A stretch of DNA of 20,000 nucleotides from an uncultured virus (IMG/VR IMGVR_UViG_3300027668_000012) (lineage: Duplodnaviria > Heunggongvirae > Uroviricota > Caudoviricetes). The stretch lies in IMG/VR virus record IMGVR_UViG_3300027668_000012, positions 57,998 to 77,997 of that record; one strand, 5' to 3'. The notes beneath the pieces are model-generated. The model had not been told where the DNA came from. It worked only from the letters and a program-made list of their open reading frames with translations, and did no database searches. Numbering within the stretch: position 1 is the first letter of the stretch; every line of letters starts with the position of its first letter. Below, piece after piece: positions 3,760 to 19,834 of this stretch. Position numbers and translations under genes: made by a program.

Positions 3760-4413
3760 ATGAGCGTTACGGATTACACTGTATCACCAATAACTATACA
3801 AGAAGCTACACCATTTGTTGTTGATTGGCATTACTCCAAGAACACAAATGGCTTGGCTACTCGTTTCTGTTTCGGTCTTTTTGATAAGGCTGAAATGATT
3901 GGTGTTATGATATATGGGTATCTAGGCATGGCAAGTGTTTGGAAGAAGTATGGGGAAGTTGAAACAGACGTTGTTGAACTAAGACGATTGTGCTGTATTG
4001 ATGATACTCCGAAGAATACCGAAAGTTACTTCATATCTCAGACAATCAATTGGTTGAGACAGAACACAGACTGTAAAGTTGTTGTCAGTTATGCTGACAG
4101 TATGCAAGGTCATGTAGGCACTATATACTATGCATCAAACTTTTACTATTTGGGTATGACTGCAAAGGGTAGATCGATAAAGATTAAAGGTAATGATCGT
4201 CTGTATCACGAAAAGACAATACGGACGTACTACACACCTAAGAATGGCGAGAGGCGTCTTAAACCATACGCACAAAAAATTAAGGAACAGCTAGAGAACG
4301 GCGAAGCAGAGTACGTTCATAGTAAAGGCAAACACATATTCGTATATCCTCTCAATAAGAAGGAAAGACGGAAGTACAAAATGAAAGCAACGAGTATCAA
4401 ATATATTATATAG
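3760..4413 (+). CDS. Mom-like (phage Mu Mom family, GNAT fold) DNA adenine-modification enzyme
   Basis: HYS, FGLF...IGV..YG, VELRRLCC.DDTPKNTESYFIS, VVSYAD..QGHVGTIY.ASNF.YLG motifs. Confidence 0.75.
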   Translation: MSVTDYTVSPITIQEATPFVVDWHYSKNTNGLATRFCFGLFDKAEMIGVMIYGYLGMASVWKKYGEVETDVVELRRLCCIDDTPKNTESYFISQTINWLRQNTDCKVVVSYADSMQGHVGTIYYASNFYYLGMTAKGRSIKIKGNDRLYHEKTIRTYYTPKNGERRLKPYAQKIKEQLENGEAEYVHSKGKHIFVYPLNKKERRKYKMKATSIKYII

Positions 4414-7954: not shown

Positions 7955-8272
7955 ATGACATTAAATAAAGAAGGTGTAACTGTTGTAACAATTGTCTTGC
8001 CAAATGGTGCAGAGATTGTTGGCAGATACACAAAAACTCAGAAAGACCAGTACATACTATACAAACCTCGCCTAGTACAAGCTGGCGATTCTGCATTATC
8101 ATTTGTTCCTGGTATCTGTATGACAGGTGCAACAGAGCCGACAGAAGTTGCCTTTAAATTTACGAGTGTGATGTTCATGGTAGAGACTGACCCTACGATT
8201 GCAAATGCATGGCGTGAAGCAACAGGTACAAGAAATGTTATCGTACCAGAGAAATCAGCGTTGATTATGTAA
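7955..8272 (+). CDS. Hypothetical protein, possibly Sm-like beta fold
   Basis: AAGGA SD; VVTIVLPNGAEIVGR pattern and C-terminal 'IVP' tail seen in T4-like hypotheticals. Confidence 0.6.
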   Translation: MTLNKEGVTVVTIVLPNGAEIVGRYTKTQKDQYILYKPRLVQAGDSALSFVPGICMTGATEPTEVAFKFTSVMFMVETDPTIANAWREATGTRNVIVPEKSALIM

Positions 8273-8682
8273 TGAAAAAGATAGGCTTCACTGCATCCAC
8301 GTTTGATCTATTACATGCAGGTCATGTAGCCATGTTGAGAGAAGCAAAGTCTCAATGTGACTACTTGATCTGTGCGTTGCAAGTAGACCCTAATGTAGAT
8401 AGAAAAGAAAAGAACGTTCCTATTCAAAGTATTGTAGAGAGACAAGCCCAACTGTCAGCAATAAAGTATGTTGATGAAGTGGTAGTCTATTGTACCGAAG
8501 AAGATTTACTTGATATAATAAATATGTATCCGATTGACATCAGAGTTCTTGGTGAAGAATATCGTCAAAAAGAATTTACAGGTAAAGACGTGTGTCGCAA
8601 TCGTGGCATTGAATTGTATTTTAATAAAAGAGATCATCGCTTTTCTACGACTGATCTAAGAAAGAGAGTGCGAGATGTTTAA
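8272..8682 (+). CDS. Cytidylyltransferase (TagD/glycerol-3-phosphate CT-like, HIGH family)
   Basis: FDLLHAGH (HxGH), ER...L..IKYVDEV, RDHRFSTT (RxxxxSTT). Confidence 0.88.
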   Translation: MKKIGFTASTFDLLHAGHVAMLREAKSQCDYLICALQVDPNVDRKEKNVPIQSIVERQAQLSAIKYVDEVVVYCTEEDLLDIINMYPIDIRVLGEEYRQKEFTGKDVCRNRGIELYFNKRDHRFSTTDLRKRVRDV

Positions 8683-9402: not shown

Positions 9403-10269
9403 ATGAGTGAAGAAAAATTTAAACTAGGCATAGTCGGTCACGGCTTTGTGGGTAAAGCTGTAGACTACGGATTTACACATCGTGACGTAGAAATGTTTTA
9501 TGTAGATCCGTTATATAATACAAGCATTGATGATCTAGTAGAGTGGCAACCTAACATCACATTTATATGTGCGCCTACACCAATGGACGATACTGGCGTA
9601 GTAAACGCTACTATTGTTGAAGATGCTGTCTTAAAGCTGATACAACATACAAAAAGTGGCATTGCTATTAAGTCTACTGTGACACCTGATGTAATGCAAC
9701 GATTAGCTTTTACAGCATCCCAGCTAGGAGCTGATAGTAGATTTGTGTATAACCCAGAGTTCCTTACAGAAAACAATTCTAAGGCAGAGTTTGTGTCACC
9801 TAAGTTTAATATATTTGGTGGAACATTAGAAGCTATTGATGGATTGTTATGGGCTTACGATGTCTTCTCTATGTGTAATATGGAAAAGGTAGTAAAAATG
9901 AGTCCAGTAGAAGCGGCATTTGCAAAATATGCAATCAACTCTTTCTTAGCGACTAAAGTGACGTTCTTTAATCAGTTGTATGATGCTTCTGAATCTATGA
10001 ACGTTTCATATAAGCGCATACTAAGAGGCATAGAAGCTGATCCTCGTATAGGTGGCTCTCATACCAAAGTGCCTGGATTTGATGGTAAGCGTGGCTTTGG
10101 TGGTGCTTGTTTTCCCAAAGACACTAAGGCATTTAACAAAGCTTTTAATCGCTTCACCCTTCTTGATAATGTCGTCACAATTAATAACGAATATCGTAAA
10201 GAATACAATTTGGACGATAGAGAAAAAGCACAGAATATTAACTATGAAACGAAAGGAAATGATACATGA
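9403..10269 (+). CDS. UDP-glucose/GDP-mannose dehydrogenase family protein (short form)
   Basis: GHGFVG Rossmann motif, ICAPTP, IKSTV, NPEFL, KY..NSFLATKVTFFN, DPRIG, GFGGACFPKD (catalytic Cys). Confidence 0.88.
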   Translation: MSEEKFKLGIVGHGFVGKAVDYGFTHRDVEMFYVDPLYNTSIDDLVEWQPNITFICAPTPMDDTGVVNATIVEDAVLKLIQHTKSGIAIKSTVTPDVMQRLAFTASQLGADSRFVYNPEFLTENNSKAEFVSPKFNIFGGTLEAIDGLLWAYDVFSMCNMEKVVKMSPVEAAFAKYAINSFLATKVTFFNQLYDASESMNVSYKRILRGIEADPRIGGSHTKVPGFDGKRGFGGACFPKDTKAFNKAFNRFTLLDNVVTINNEYRKEYNLDDREKAQNINYETKGNDT

Positions 10270-17020: not shown

Positions 17021-17466
17021 ATACAGTAGTTTTAATGGCGTTATTGGCACAAGATCCAGAAGGTATGGAGTGCCTAGCCAAAAACATATATTTCGAATCT
17101 CGTAATCAATCACATTTAGGTCAAATGGCAGTCGCCCATGTGACTATTAATCGTGTATTAGATAAGCGTTATCCAGATACAGTTTGTAAAGTTGTACATC
17201 AAGGATTGAAGCATAGCAGTGGTGCAATGAAACGTCATAGGTGTCAGTTCTCTTGGTATTGTGACGGACTCACAGACGTCCCTAAGAACATTGATTTATG
17301 GTTTCAGTCACACATGGTGGCTTTAGACTCTATTGACCTTTACGAACAGTTTGATGTTTCAGAAGGTTCGACACATTATCACACAACAGGCGTGTATCCT
17401 AATTGGGCACCGACACTTGATGAAAAAGTTCGTATTGACGATCACATCTTTTATCGTTGGAACTAA
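17017..17466 (+). CDS. Cell wall hydrolase, SleB/CwlJ (Hydrolase_2) family
   Basis: CLAKNIYFESR (catalytic Glu), GQMAVA.V..NRV, YPDTVC.VV.Q, CQFSWYCDG, GSTHYH, PNWA, IDDHIFY. Confidence 0.92.
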   Translation: MNTVVLMALLAQDPEGMECLAKNIYFESRNQSHLGQMAVAHVTINRVLDKRYPDTVCKVVHQGLKHSSGAMKRHRCQFSWYCDGLTDVPKNIDLWFQSHMVALDSIDLYEQFDVSEGSTHYHTTGVYPNWAPTLDEKVRIDDHIFYRWN

Positions 17467-18560
17467 ACACCTAGATCATTAATACCAACATCACCTCTTG
17501 CAGGGAAGTAGTCAGTCATATGACCTTCCCTGTAAAGGTCTAGTGTAAGACAATGTAGTCCACCATCAAAGAAGTATCTGTGTCGCCAAGGTACGTGGAT
17601 AGGTTCCATTTTATGCTTTTTAAGATAAGCATTCACTTTTGGGTTCATGTTGTTTACACAAACGTGATGCTCATCTAGCACAAGACAGTTAACGTCAAAT
17701 ACAGTTTCTTCTGTATACCCTACCCAACCATTAAGCCAACTTTCGACAAACATTGTAAACTCGTCGTTGTCTTCTTCTCCAGGCACCCACCATTTACCTA
17801 GTACCTTTTTTTTCATTTTTAAAAAGCCGTTGACCTTTTCCCAACTTTGCTCAGGTAAATATAAAAGATCCCAATCAGGAAATGTCTTATCATAAAATTG
17901 TATATCTTCTAGGCTTATAATCACTCCTGGCTTTAACGTATGAAAAACTCCGTCATTATGACCACCTATTTTAAGATAGTTTAATCTAATATCTTTTGTA
18001 GACTTCAGGAGTTCTTGCTGTTGCCATGGACGAATAGGTGTATCATTTGTATCAATGTAAAGATCACGTCCAACCATAGTATATTGAGGTGCGTGTATAA
18101 CTTCTTTTTTAAACCCATCCAGACGACGACCTGAAACACTATCGACTCTTAAATCAACGACGTCAGTGTTGTTATATTTTTTTAATAACTTACCCCAAGG
18201 ATCGTTGGTTTCAATATCTGTGTAAACAATATTGTTACCAACTACAAGTTGTGCATCTCTAGGACACAAGGGTGGCCTAGGCACACCTCCTCTTCCCATA
18301 CGCATTCTACCTTTTTGATCTACGTGGTTCATAATATTATCATTTGTATCTATTTCAGGACGTAATACAGTGCAACCAAAATCTTTTAATACATTAGAAT
18401 AATTTTCTAAGTCTTCTTGACACTCATCTGCAATTCTATAGAAACAATCCCTAGTGTCCTTACTCTTAATATCCTTGTAGAATTCTTTGTTATAAGTATC
18501 ACCAAGGACAACTGTTTTTAATTTGTCCCATTTGTTCCAAATATTGTATTGATTTTTCAT
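17463..18560 (-). CDS. Amidinotransferase (pentein superfamily; glycine/scyllo-inosamine amidinotransferase-like)
   Basis: W..LKTVVLG, V.RP, PLCPRD, HNDG (catalytic His), FDVNCL, DGGLHCLTLDL (catalytic Cys). Reverse-strand GAGG SD favours the start at 18560 rather than 18584. Confidence 0.85.
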   Translation of the reverse strand: MKNQYNIWNKWDKLKTVVLGDTYNKEFYKDIKSKDTRDCFYRIADECQEDLENYSNVLKDFGCTVLRPEIDTNDNIMNHVDQKGRMRMGRGGVPRPPLCPRDAQLVVGNNIVYTDIETNDPWGKLLKKYNNTDVVDLRVDSVSGRRLDGFKKEVIHAPQYTMVGRDLYIDTNDTPIRPWQQQELLKSTKDIRLNYLKIGGHNDGVFHTLKPGVIISLEDIQFYDKTFPDWDLLYLPEQSWEKVNGFLKMKKKVLGKWWVPGEEDNDEFTMFVESWLNGWVGYTEETVFDVNCLVLDEHHVCVNNMNPKVNAYLKKHKMEPIHVPWRHRYFFDGGLHCLTLDLYREGHMTDYFPARGDVGINDLGV

Positions 18561-18571
18561 AAGGTGCCTCA

Positions 18572-19003
18572 ATGATCTTTTCACGTATAGACTTATCTAT
18601 GTCATACTATGACGTGTGTTTAGATTACAAATTTATTAGTGATGTCCATAATAAGATACCACAGCTTAATAGTATATATACAAAATATTGTAAGTATAAA
18701 AAGTTTCAAAGTCATATGCCTATTTTTGATACTGAATATCTTGATCCGTTACATGACATAATTGGATACTATGATAATGAAAAGTTAATTGCATTTAGTA
18801 TAATACGTAAGCACAGCACTTCTGATGCAGAAGCGATTCAATTTGCGTGGAATTATGAGAAACCATCTTTAAGTATTGGAGCTAAAAGTCTTTTTACAGA
18901 ATGTGCCTTGTATAAAGAGAGTGGATATGATTACTTATGGTTAGGTGAAAATCAACCATATAAAAGCAAATTTGATGGATATGAAGAAATGGGACCTCTA
19001 TAA
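18572..19003 (+). CDS. Arginyl/leucyl-tRNA-protein transferase C-terminal (ATE_C, GNAT-like) single-domain protein
   Basis: IY.KYC..K, GYYD..KLIAFS, FAWNYE.P.LSIG..SL..EC...K..GY.YLWLG resembles the ATE1/Bpt C-domain 'LSLG..S...EI......G..Y.YLG'. Confidence 0.55.
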   Translation: MIFSRIDLSMSYYDVCLDYKFISDVHNKIPQLNSIYTKYCKYKKFQSHMPIFDTEYLDPLHDIIGYYDNEKLIAFSIIRKHSTSDAEAIQFAWNYEKPSLSIGAKSLFTECALYKESGYDYLWLGENQPYKSKFDGYEEMGPL

Positions 19004-19332
19004 TGGATGTATATACAATTTACGCAGATCACAAAGAAGGTGTAAACGCACACTGGTTTGTAGCTGAAATGAAAAAGTTTTTAAGTAAGATGGAAAAAAA
19101 CGGAGCGATTGAAAGTTTTCGTATCACTCGAATGAAGCTAGGCTTTAGGTCTATGGACTTGCCAGAGTTTCGCATTGATATGGAATTTAAAGGCTTACAA
19201 CAATTAGATGATGCTATGACAAATGTGATACGTAATGACGATGATATAGAGAAAGAGCATAAAGGTTTCAATCATCTTGTCGATGTAGAAACGATTCAAC
19301 ACTTCTTATATAGAGACTTCCCTGATGATTAA
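19003..19332 (+). CDS. DUF6614-like (dimeric alpha/beta barrel-like) protein
   Basis: G.IE.FRITR.KLGF, EF.I..EF..L.QLD.A, LYRDFPD resemble alphaproteobacterial DUF6614 from memory; TAATG coupling. Confidence 0.5.
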   Translation: MDVYTIYADHKEGVNAHWFVAEMKKFLSKMEKNGAIESFRITRMKLGFRSMDLPEFRIDMEFKGLQQLDDAMTNVIRNDDDIEKEHKGFNHLVDVETIQHFLYRDFPDD

Positions 19333-19834
19333 CGAAATGATGGAACTCGAAGAAGACGTATCAGATTGGATAAAAACCTTTGTGAGCCAACCTAACCAGT
19401 CTTTGGGATACGAACCTTGTCCATATGCACAAGCTGCATTAGACAAAGGTAAAATACATTGGTGTTATGTTGAGCATAAAAAGGACATAGCAGTTCAACT
19501 ATATCAATACGCAACATTCAATAAACAGTTTTGGGATAGGATAGAAGTTATCGTAATAGGGATAAAGCCTGATATGATAACAGCCAAAGAACTAGAACAA
19601 GAAGTTGATGAAATGAATACACAAGAGTTATTACCAAGAGGTTTTATAGCTTTGCCAGATCATCCTGACGATAAAGAAATTATCAATGGCGTTGAAATGA
19701 ACCAAGGTAAGTGGGCATTAATACTTTTACAGTCAAAAGATAAGTTAAACCTAGCAAGTCGTAAGTTAGACAGGCTAGGTTATTATGATAGTTGGTCTGA
19801 GTCTAATAAAGAGGATGTTTTTAAAGGGCGATAA
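19325..19834 (+). CDS. DUF1415-like conserved phage hypothetical protein
   Basis: W...FV...N..LG..PCPYA..A, HPD, L.LLQ...KLN.AS..L...GYYD.W. Confidence 0.5.
   Translation: MINEMMELEEDVSDWIKTFVSQPNQSLGYEPCPYAQAALDKGKIHWCYVEHKKDIAVQLYQYATFNKQFWDRIEVIVIGIKPDMITAKELEQEVDEMNTQELLPRGFIALPDHPDDKEIINGVEMNQGKWALILLQSKDKLNLASRKLDRLGYYDSWSESNKEDVFKGR

Follow-up and report, generated by a model that had tools for sequence, protein, structure and literature searches.

We analysed the last 20 kb (20,000 nucleotides; hereafter the window) of IMGVR_UViG_3300027668_000012, an IMG/VR record of an uncultured member of the Caudoviricetes. The record is a 78-kb linear viral fragment, estimated to be 46% complete, with T4-like replication genes for a clamp loader, RegA, DNA polymerase, primase, UvsX, a DnaB-like helicase and a thymidylate-synthase-like protein. 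Window DNA has no near match in 50,697 GenBank phage records. More than 10 studies have marine metagenome assemblies in which the 3-kb stretch studied here recurs with almost no letter changed, and the source is therefore an abundant, uncultured marine T4-like phage. This stretch carries a block of four genes that encode an amidinotransferase, a GNAT protein, a DUF6614 protein and a small protein, called heme-like below for its resemblance to Cys-ligated heme enzymes (Table 1). An initial annotation had singled out these four open reading frames (ORFs) as a candidate arginine-chemistry cassette, and their description and coordinates were confirmed.

Table 1. Genes of the four-gene block, with positions in the window.
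Gene product	Position	Strand	Length	Pfam family
Amidinotransferase (GME superfamily; AGAT/HsvA/SxtG/StrB1-like)	17463-18584	(-)	373 aa (ORF from GTG 18584)	
GNAT, single domain, ATE_C / aminoacyl-tRNA-transferase type	18572-19003	(+)	143 aa	
DUF6614 protein	19003-19332	(+)	109 aa	DUF6614
Small AglA/cytochrome-P422-like protein, putative Cys-ligated heme oxygenase	19325-19834	(+)	169 aa	

The amidinotransferase gene is the sole minus-strand gene of this stretch and lies head-to-head with the plus-strand run formed by the other three, as had been noted. Within the run, the stop codon of the GNAT gene and the start codon of the DUF6614 gene share one base (TAATG), and the DUF6614 and heme-like genes overlap by 8 nt. 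Judged from these overlaps, the three plus-strand genes are translationally coupled, in line with the tight coupling first described. As listed, the amidinotransferase ORF overlaps the GNAT start by 13 nt. Because its relatives begin at the methionine at residue 9 and a GAGG lies 9 nt upstream, the true start is probably ATG 18560, which would give a protein of 365 aa that starts 11 nt from the divergent GNAT start codon. Each of the four proteins has homologues at 26–80% identity in many other viral contigs, so that none of the four is a chance ORF.

The linkage of these genes was surveyed in two samples of viral loci. We denote the amidinotransferase A, the GNAT protein G, the heme-like protein H and the DUF6614 protein D, and refer to G, H and D together as the trio. 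An alignment-based scan of IMG/VR seeded with the GNAT protein matched at least 599 stretches, at least 574 of which were confirmed, and 80 loci were kept. Copies from the window phage (L001, L003, L005, L008, L009 and L010) and a locus found through its amidinotransferase (L002) were left out of this sample, in which 78 loci remained. At least 3 kb was present on both sides in 46 of the 78, yielding 39 distinct cores, where distinct refers to exact identity and near-duplicates and one further window-phage locus (L004) are still included. A second sample was seeded with a DUF6614 fusion protein; it is biased towards the amidinotransferase and shares some contigs with the first.

Among the 39 GNAT-seeded loci, 23 carry H, G and D, 12 carry all four genes, two are without DUF6614 and two appear to lack the heme-like gene, which tblastn missed and which clustering recovered in that locus type (L038). 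Counted by gene, the heme-like gene (by tblastn) and the DUF6614 gene are each present in 37 loci and the amidinotransferase in 16. Of the 45 distinct DUF6614-seeded loci, 28 hold the complete set of four, 13 the trio, one A, D and G, two A and D, and one D alone. In both samples the genes are contiguous, span 2.3–2.7 kb and occur in more than 10 orders and orientations, so that shared ancestry of a single arrangement is insufficient to account for their association. The span reaches 3.3–3.8 kb in three loci, two of which hold two amidinotransferase copies and one a gap before DUF6614. The co-occurrence on which the initial annotation staked its proposal is thus borne out, since the genes stay together through many rearrangements.

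The conserved core of the block is the trio, found in at least 570 viral loci, whereas the amidinotransferase is optional and sometimes relocated. Five large phage records in which no amidinotransferase adjoins the trio were searched for one at other sites; four of them have a homologue there, and the fifth record is only 40% complete. The four-gene cassette first proposed therefore holds as a set of linked genes and not as a fixed unit of four. We regard it as very probable that the four genes are inherited together and make up a single phage enzyme module. Outside these samples, 24 cultured cyanomyophage records contain distant heme-like genes and no GNAT gene, and the GNAT protein has no match in the 50,697 GenBank phage records. 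The GNAT gene was also seen on four contigs assigned to bacterial metagenome-assembled genomes (L086–L089, from Haliscomenobacter, Bacteroidetes, Legionellales and Weeksellaceae). L086–L088 show a phage-type gene order and L089 carries the GNAT gene only, and all four are probably mis-binned phage DNA.

The profile matches make the family assignment of the amidinotransferase secure. A phmmer search of the PDB with the window protein matched SxtG, AGAT, HsvA and StrB1 through its C-terminus (E values from 1.7e-5 to 4.6e-3). A profile of 16 phage relatives (A4) matched AGAT (2.8e-26), HsvA (1.3e-23), SxtG (4.5e-23) and StrB1 (6.6e-17). All seven PDB matches of this profile are amidinotransferases, aligned over two stretches (profile positions 8–260 and 326–388). 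The His/Cys motifs, described at the outset as intact, are invariant in 16 of 16 family members, namely D110 (PRD), H209 and D211 (GGHND) and H344-C345 (GGLHCLT), and they align with PRD, HIDATF and FHCWT of AGAT. We take the AGAT equivalents to be the catalytic Cys, the His-x-Asp and the guanidinium-binding Asp. Pfam, including PF02274, gave no match for the window protein, and PF02274 matches weakly in four of the 16 family members (best E 0.0016).

AGAT, StrB1, SxtG and HsvA thus share full-length homology and the catalytic Asp, His-x-Asp and Cys with the phage family. The phage proteins differ from them by a hypervariable insert of 60–100 residues and by being uniquely coupled or fused to DUF6614. 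In some phages the amidinotransferase is duplicated. Two paralogues stand beside the trio in L079 (3171-4379 and 4407-5630) and L085 (6420-7697 and 9989-11068), and G002, G003 and G004 each have two distant copies elsewhere in the genome. The off-trio gene of G003, a 349-kb phage, is found with genes for two unknown proteins of ~380 aa, a NodU/CmcH-type carbamoyltransferase, a radical SAM enzyme and an NAD-dependent epimerase (L105:4117-13467).

The DUF6614 assignment, already suggested in the initial annotation, is unambiguous, with a Pfam score of 86.1 bits against a cut-off of 25 over residues 1–108 of 109 and a match in all 11 aligned relatives. Among 11 diverse DUF6614 sequences, 28 columns are invariant and M1 and D2 are nearly so. 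In one phage the DUF6614 protein keeps 79% identity, against 31–55% for the rest of the cassette proteins. Weak Pfam side matches were to DIMCO_N (5 of 11 members) and Saccharop_dh_N (3 of 11), and no model of the protein is present in the ESM Atlas.

A search among longer proteins identified fusions in which an amidinotransferase, a linker and DUF6614 form one chain. These fall into two clusters, P0181 (515 aa, 16 members) and P0182 (489 aa, eight members). Most members are full length, with 11 of the 15 listed P0181 members at 515 aa and six of the eight P0182 members at 486 aa or more, and the members come from independent assemblies with contigs of up to 132 kb. In L187, for instance, the order is H, G and a fused A-D. 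Where the amidinotransferase and DUF6614 genes are both present and not fused, they are neighbours in 11 of 14 GNAT-seeded loci and in almost every DUF6614-seeded locus. Because of these fusions and this adjacency, DUF6614 is most plausibly a domain that partners the amidinotransferase.

Other long DUF6614 proteins (P0178–P0180 and P0183–P0187) look like miscalled starts or chimeric calls and were set aside. A 44-aa anti-Druantia protein, Druad1, is labelled 'DUF6614' by prediction in a preprint (bioRxiv 10.1101/2024.04.14.589459). We rejected it as a functional clue since it is too short and, according to that text, its authors found no homologues. Directly after DUF6614 and on the same strand, 15 loci carry a gene for a short PNP_UDP_1 phosphorylase (representative L033:7269-7811). 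In 12 loci, a type-I phosphoribosyltransferase gene directly follows DUF6614 (representative L025:6758-7282).

The GNAT protein belongs, by family and by predicted fold, with enzymes that transfer aminoacyl groups from tRNA. ATE_C is the Pfam family it approaches, and five of its 26 relatives (94–148 aa, all metagenomic) have a precomputed PF04377 (ATE_C) label. The family profile picks up K. lactis ATE1 through its GNAT core (E 0.0061), with ATE_C-type motifs in line with ATE1 (YY.N.KL.A.S, QFAW/F.W, LG..S...E and YLG...YK). An AlphaFold2 model of the protein (predicted local distance difference test score, pLDDT, 93.4) was compared with known structures by Foldseek. The top ranks are held by aminoacyl-phosphatidylglycerol synthases/MprF, ATE1, FemX and the tRNA-dependent peptide synthases Sba18/Sbb17, with the acetyl-CoA GNATs VipF and WecD also among them. 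The model superposes on the second GNAT domain of known aminoacyl-tRNA transferases, to which its fold is closest, and the single-domain ATE_C/GNAT-like character ascribed to the protein from its sequence is in this way supported.

The phage protein thus has the GNAT fold and ATE_C-type motifs in common with ATE1/Bpt/L,F-transferase, FemX and MprF, and it differs from them in having neither an ATE_N zinc/Cys domain nor a first GNAT domain. As modelled, it is a stand-alone 'second half' of an aminoacyl-tRNA transferase. From its family and fold we infer an aminoacyl-tRNA donor, and an acyl-CoA donor may also be compatible with the modelled fold. A partner protein, or dimerisation of the GNAT protein, may provide the missing acceptor-binding half. 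A search for longer GNAT proteins found no fusions and a single longer relative. This relative (P0177, 265 aa, metagenomic) has an N-terminal extension of ~100 residues with no Pfam match and, from its sequence, may represent a step between Bpt-like enzymes and the single-domain GNAT of phages.

The heme-like protein was initially described as a DUF1415-like protein with CPYA and HPD motifs. The motifs are real, taking the form PCPYA and DHP, and all 34 family members share C32, D112 and H113, whereas the family is nearer to DUF6875 than to DUF1415. Among the 34 relatives, 26 give a match to DUF6875 (at E ≤ 0.1), three to DUF1415 and one to YqcI/YcgG (PF08892, E 0.046), and the ESM Atlas neighbours of the protein are labelled DUF6875 or DUF1415. 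PF08892 has no match in the window's genome fragment. The family is large, with 1070 representative clusters at E ≤ 1e-3, of which 546 pass E ≤ 1e-10. Further invariants of the phage family are E118, G128 and Q136.

DUF6875 has been renamed cytochrome P422 for a group of Cys-ligated b-heme tryptophan hydroxylases with an RxGxVCP heme-binding motif, as stated in a preprint (bioRxiv 10.64898/2025.12.11.692455). In the phage protein, Cys32-Pro33 follows the first helix, and hhalign places it on the Cys-Pro of RKGAICPF in a DUF6875 protein (138.6 bits) with 82% probability and an E value of 1e-5. The alignment with the P422 tryptophan hydroxylases is confined to the N-terminal helix and the Cys loop, and the published substrate motifs SBR1/SBR2 are not evident in the phage protein. 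Because these motifs are not evident and the phage-specific invariants differ, the substrate is probably not tryptophan.

The AlphaFold2 model of the heme-like protein (pLDDT 93.7) gave a second lead. Foldseek returned nothing below E 0.001, and AglA accounts for five of the best 11 matches listed (probability 0.80–0.93). AglA is the only clear structural match, and the model has the AglA sandwich fold. From this fold and the placement of Cys32, we think it somewhat more likely than not that the protein is a miniature thiolate-heme oxygenase.

A candidate tie between this protein and radical SAM chemistry was not used. A metagenomic fusion of a radical SAM/SPASM protein with a heme-like domain was observed (P0135, 572 aa), which is a singleton on a 3.4-kb contig and whose N-terminal half gives no match with the radical SAM genes nearby (E 0.11). 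Unrelated radical SAM genes lie 1–3.5 kb from the trio in 37 loci.

The closest precedent for the combination of a tRNA-dependent GNAT ligase and a small Cys-ligated heme enzyme is provided by AglC and AglA of the argolaphos pathway of Streptomyces monomycini. There, AglC with ArgRS, tRNA and Arg couples arginine to aminomethylphosphonate, forming AMPn-Arg, and AglA, a YqcI/YcgG-family 'sandwich-fold' protein with a Cys44-ligated heme, N-hydroxylates the guanidine of AMPn-Arg after AglC has acted (PMC12866846). The argolaphos cluster has GNAT 'peptide aminoacyl tRNA ligases' beside a YqcI/YcgG gene, and the AglC-type ligases are FemAB-like GNATs of ~340 aa (pfam13480; PMC8976061), whereas the phage GNAT is a single ATE_C-like domain. 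AglA has 274 aa and the phage protein 169, and by sequence the phage protein is nearer to DUF6875 than to YqcI/YcgG. Compared with argolaphos, DUF6614 and an amidinotransferase are extra in the phage module, and phosphonate genes are absent from it.

A precedent for the amidinotransferase arm is the hsv cluster, in which an amidinotransferase acts with amino-acid ligases on a polyamine. HsvA, the amidinotransferase of this cluster, is among the best PDB matches of the phage profile. Compared with hsvABC, the ligase partner in the phage module is putatively tRNA-dependent and not an ATP-grasp enzyme.

Because the trio mirrors the logic of AglC and AglA and an arginine-using amidinotransferase is added to it, we put forward an arginine-based proposal, which we hold tentatively, at a little short of even confidence. 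Here, the module would use arginine, a host aminoacyl-tRNA and an amine to build a guanidino/aminoacyl compound and N-oxidise it. The amidinotransferase, with DUF6614 as its partner domain, would move the amidino group of L-arginine by way of Cys345 to an amine acceptor. The ATE_C-like GNAT would acylate an amine of the same molecule from a host aminoacyl-tRNA, possibly Arg-tRNA. The AglA/P422-like protein would bind heme through Cys32, draw electrons from host ferredoxin and hydroxylate a nitrogen of the product, most likely the guanidine nitrogen, or a carbon. The target would most likely be a small amine, amino-acid-like or polyamine-like, and the outcome an aminoacylated, N-oxidised guanidino metabolite made during infection.

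A more specific version of this proposal, which we think unlikely as a whole, is that the metabolite is an aminoacyl-amidino-amine with an N-hydroxyguanidine, possibly a nitric oxide/nitroso donor or an antimetabolite. Aquatic T4-like and giant phages would make it by a minimal tRNA-dependent pathway to manipulate host physiology, defence or competitors. Full-text literature searches on the families of the module and on phage amidinotransferases found no published description of it. The module appears as known enzyme logic, varied, in a phage setting. Because the 169-aa protein resembles AglA/P422 and AglA acts downstream of an Arg-tRNA-dependent GNAT ligase, the arginine theme of the initial annotation is strengthened, yet unproven.

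If the proposal is right, phages combine tRNA-dependent ligation, thiolate-heme N-oxidation and amidino transfer in a natural-product-style chemistry, and do so with proteins much smaller than the bacterial equivalents. DUF6614 and a phage branch of the recently recognised P422/YqcI heme enzymes would each gain a first function, and the GNAT protein would offer a minimal single-domain model of an aminoacyl-tRNA transferase.

Several observations weigh against the arginine-based proposal. At the level of families, the GNAT protein scores 23.0 bits for ATE_C, below the cut-off of 25, and is without ATE_N and the first GNAT domain, the acceptor-binding domains of known enzymes. The DUF6875 match of the heme-like protein is marginal (24.6 against 24.5 bits) and covers 61 N-terminal residues only (11–71), and the phage family does not conserve the Arg and Gly of the P422 RxGxVCP motif. 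An hhalign comparison with three YqcI/YcgG proteins was not significant (probability 2.3%, E 0.021), the Cys still falling on the FPC cysteine. The DUF6614 protein has no match in the PDB by sequence (best E 0.46).

Points of the same kind come from gene content and expression. The amidinotransferase is not adjacent in most trio loci, and in other phages amidinotransferases are surrounded by nucleotide-sugar genes, a setting that favours a glycan target. The complete cyanophage S-SCSM2R encodes an amidinotransferase and a distant heme-like protein and lacks a GNAT gene. In the 78-kb fragment, 46% complete, aragorn detected no tRNA genes and no Fer2 ferredoxin was found. The expression data cut both ways. 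In favour of the proposal, three studies have RNA-library contigs that reach into the amidinotransferase, DUF6614 and heme-like genes, at low depth, and a homologous 'glycine amidinotransferase' of S-SCSM2R is recorded in a virion proteome (PMC12801897). Against it, DNA carry-over is possible in such contigs, and none in these metatranscriptome data covers the GNAT gene, which is no evidence of silence.

Two candidate links to other pathways were dropped. A polyamine link found no support, with a SpeD-type S-adenosylmethionine decarboxylase in one of the five records searched. A 7-deazaguanine link was considered for a PTPS gene beside the block in L007, and the window's own 78-kb fragment has none.

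Of the alternatives, a glycan, amino-sugar or lipid target is one that we consider unlikely. The same module would then change the host envelope or a phage-made glycan, through StrB1-like guanidinylation of an amino-sugar or inosamine-like acceptor and MprF/FemX-like aminoacylation of a sugar or lipid head group. The best structural matches of the GNAT protein, aminoacyl-phosphatidylglycerol synthases and FemX, fit such a role, but its sequence kin are ATE_C and not DUF2156 or FemAB. The neighbourhoods of amidinotransferase homologues in other phages point the same way, with cytidylyltransferase/mannose-6-P isomerase, GT4 and GT8 genes in L007, KdsA/KdsB and glycosyltransferase genes in S-SCSM2R, and carbamoyltransferase, epimerase and UDP-glucose dehydrogenase genes in G003. 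UDPG/GDP-mannose-dehydrogenase-like and cytidylyltransferase-like genes are present in the window itself. These sugar genes, however, lie outside the contiguous four-gene block and vary between phages, and the four proteins contain no membrane segment and no Pfam glycosyltransferase domain.

Hypermodification of DNA or nucleotides, in which an aminoacyl or guanidino group placed, for example, on a modified base or nucleotide would counter host restriction, seems quite unlikely. In the window phage the cassette does lie in a replication and nucleotide-metabolism arm, with genes for DNA polymerase, UvsX, a helicase, a thymidylate-synthase-like protein and a Mom-family protein, but in most other phages the trio is beside baseplate genes and not replication genes. 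The phosphorylase (15 loci) and phosphoribosyltransferase (12 loci) genes that directly follow DUF6614 in other phages would suit nucleotide chemistry, as would the PTPS/QueD-like gene that adjoins the block in L007, a gene with no PTPS counterpart in the 78-kb fragment. Pfam finds no DNA-binding, glycosylase, kinase or transglycosylase domain in the four proteins.

A third possibility, that the GNAT protein is a Bpt/ATE1-like transferase of aminoacyl groups to protein N-termini, appears very unlikely to us. It would rewire the host N-degron pathway or tag a specific protein, perhaps DUF6614, whose unusual conservation extends to a nearly invariant M1 and D2. An N-terminal Asp needs removal of the Met, which is not expected before Asp. 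That ATE_C is the sole Pfam family matched by the GNAT protein and that its profile aligns to the GNAT core of ATE1 agree with a protein substrate, but no ATE_N or substrate-binding domain is present and the search for longer relatives gave one 265-aa protein and no fusion. The constant partners, an oxygenase-like protein and an amidinotransferase, fit small-molecule chemistry better. Because the ATE_N or substrate domain is absent, rewiring of the N-degron pathway is the least likely of the options listed in the initial annotation.

That the genes are unrelated accessory genes, kept together only through a shared variable genomic island, is hardly credible: the commonest order (H-G-D after a baseplate gene) is mostly from one phage lineage, so that synteny is inherited, and the amidinotransferase is often absent or elsewhere, but the genes are contiguous through more than 10 permutations including strand flips, show overlapping stop and start codons and gene fusions, and are conserved across proteins diverged to 31–55% identity.

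Other genes of the window and its flanks are recorded here for completeness. A Mom-family protein is encoded just upstream of the DNA polymerase gene (3760-4413, plus strand; Pfam Mom 149.2 bits; PHROG 'Mom-like DNA modification protein'). Among the replication genes are embedded a cytidylyltransferase-like gene (8272-8682, plus strand) and a UDP-glucose/GDP-mannose-dehydrogenase-like gene (9403-10269, plus strand), whose 288-aa product is truncated relative to its family. The cell-wall hydrolase gene upstream of the block (Hydrolase_2, 66.5 bits) is beside it, outside this phage's copies, only in L011. A scan of the window gave 20 promoter-like sites against 14.5 ± 4.0 expected and found no terminators, and both results are uninformative.

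The downstream border of the block is visible in L004, a longer contig of the same phage, where the block ends with the 169-aa gene and is followed by a strand switch and unrelated minus-strand genes for SNase, Lipase_3 and a CHASE2-cyclase. The last of these, a fusion of a CHASE2 sensor with an adenylate/guanylate cyclase of 678–681 aa, occurs in two phages (L004:10055-12091, minus strand; L106:8024-10069, in G003) and, from its domains, looks like a phage-borne membrane sensor cyclase.

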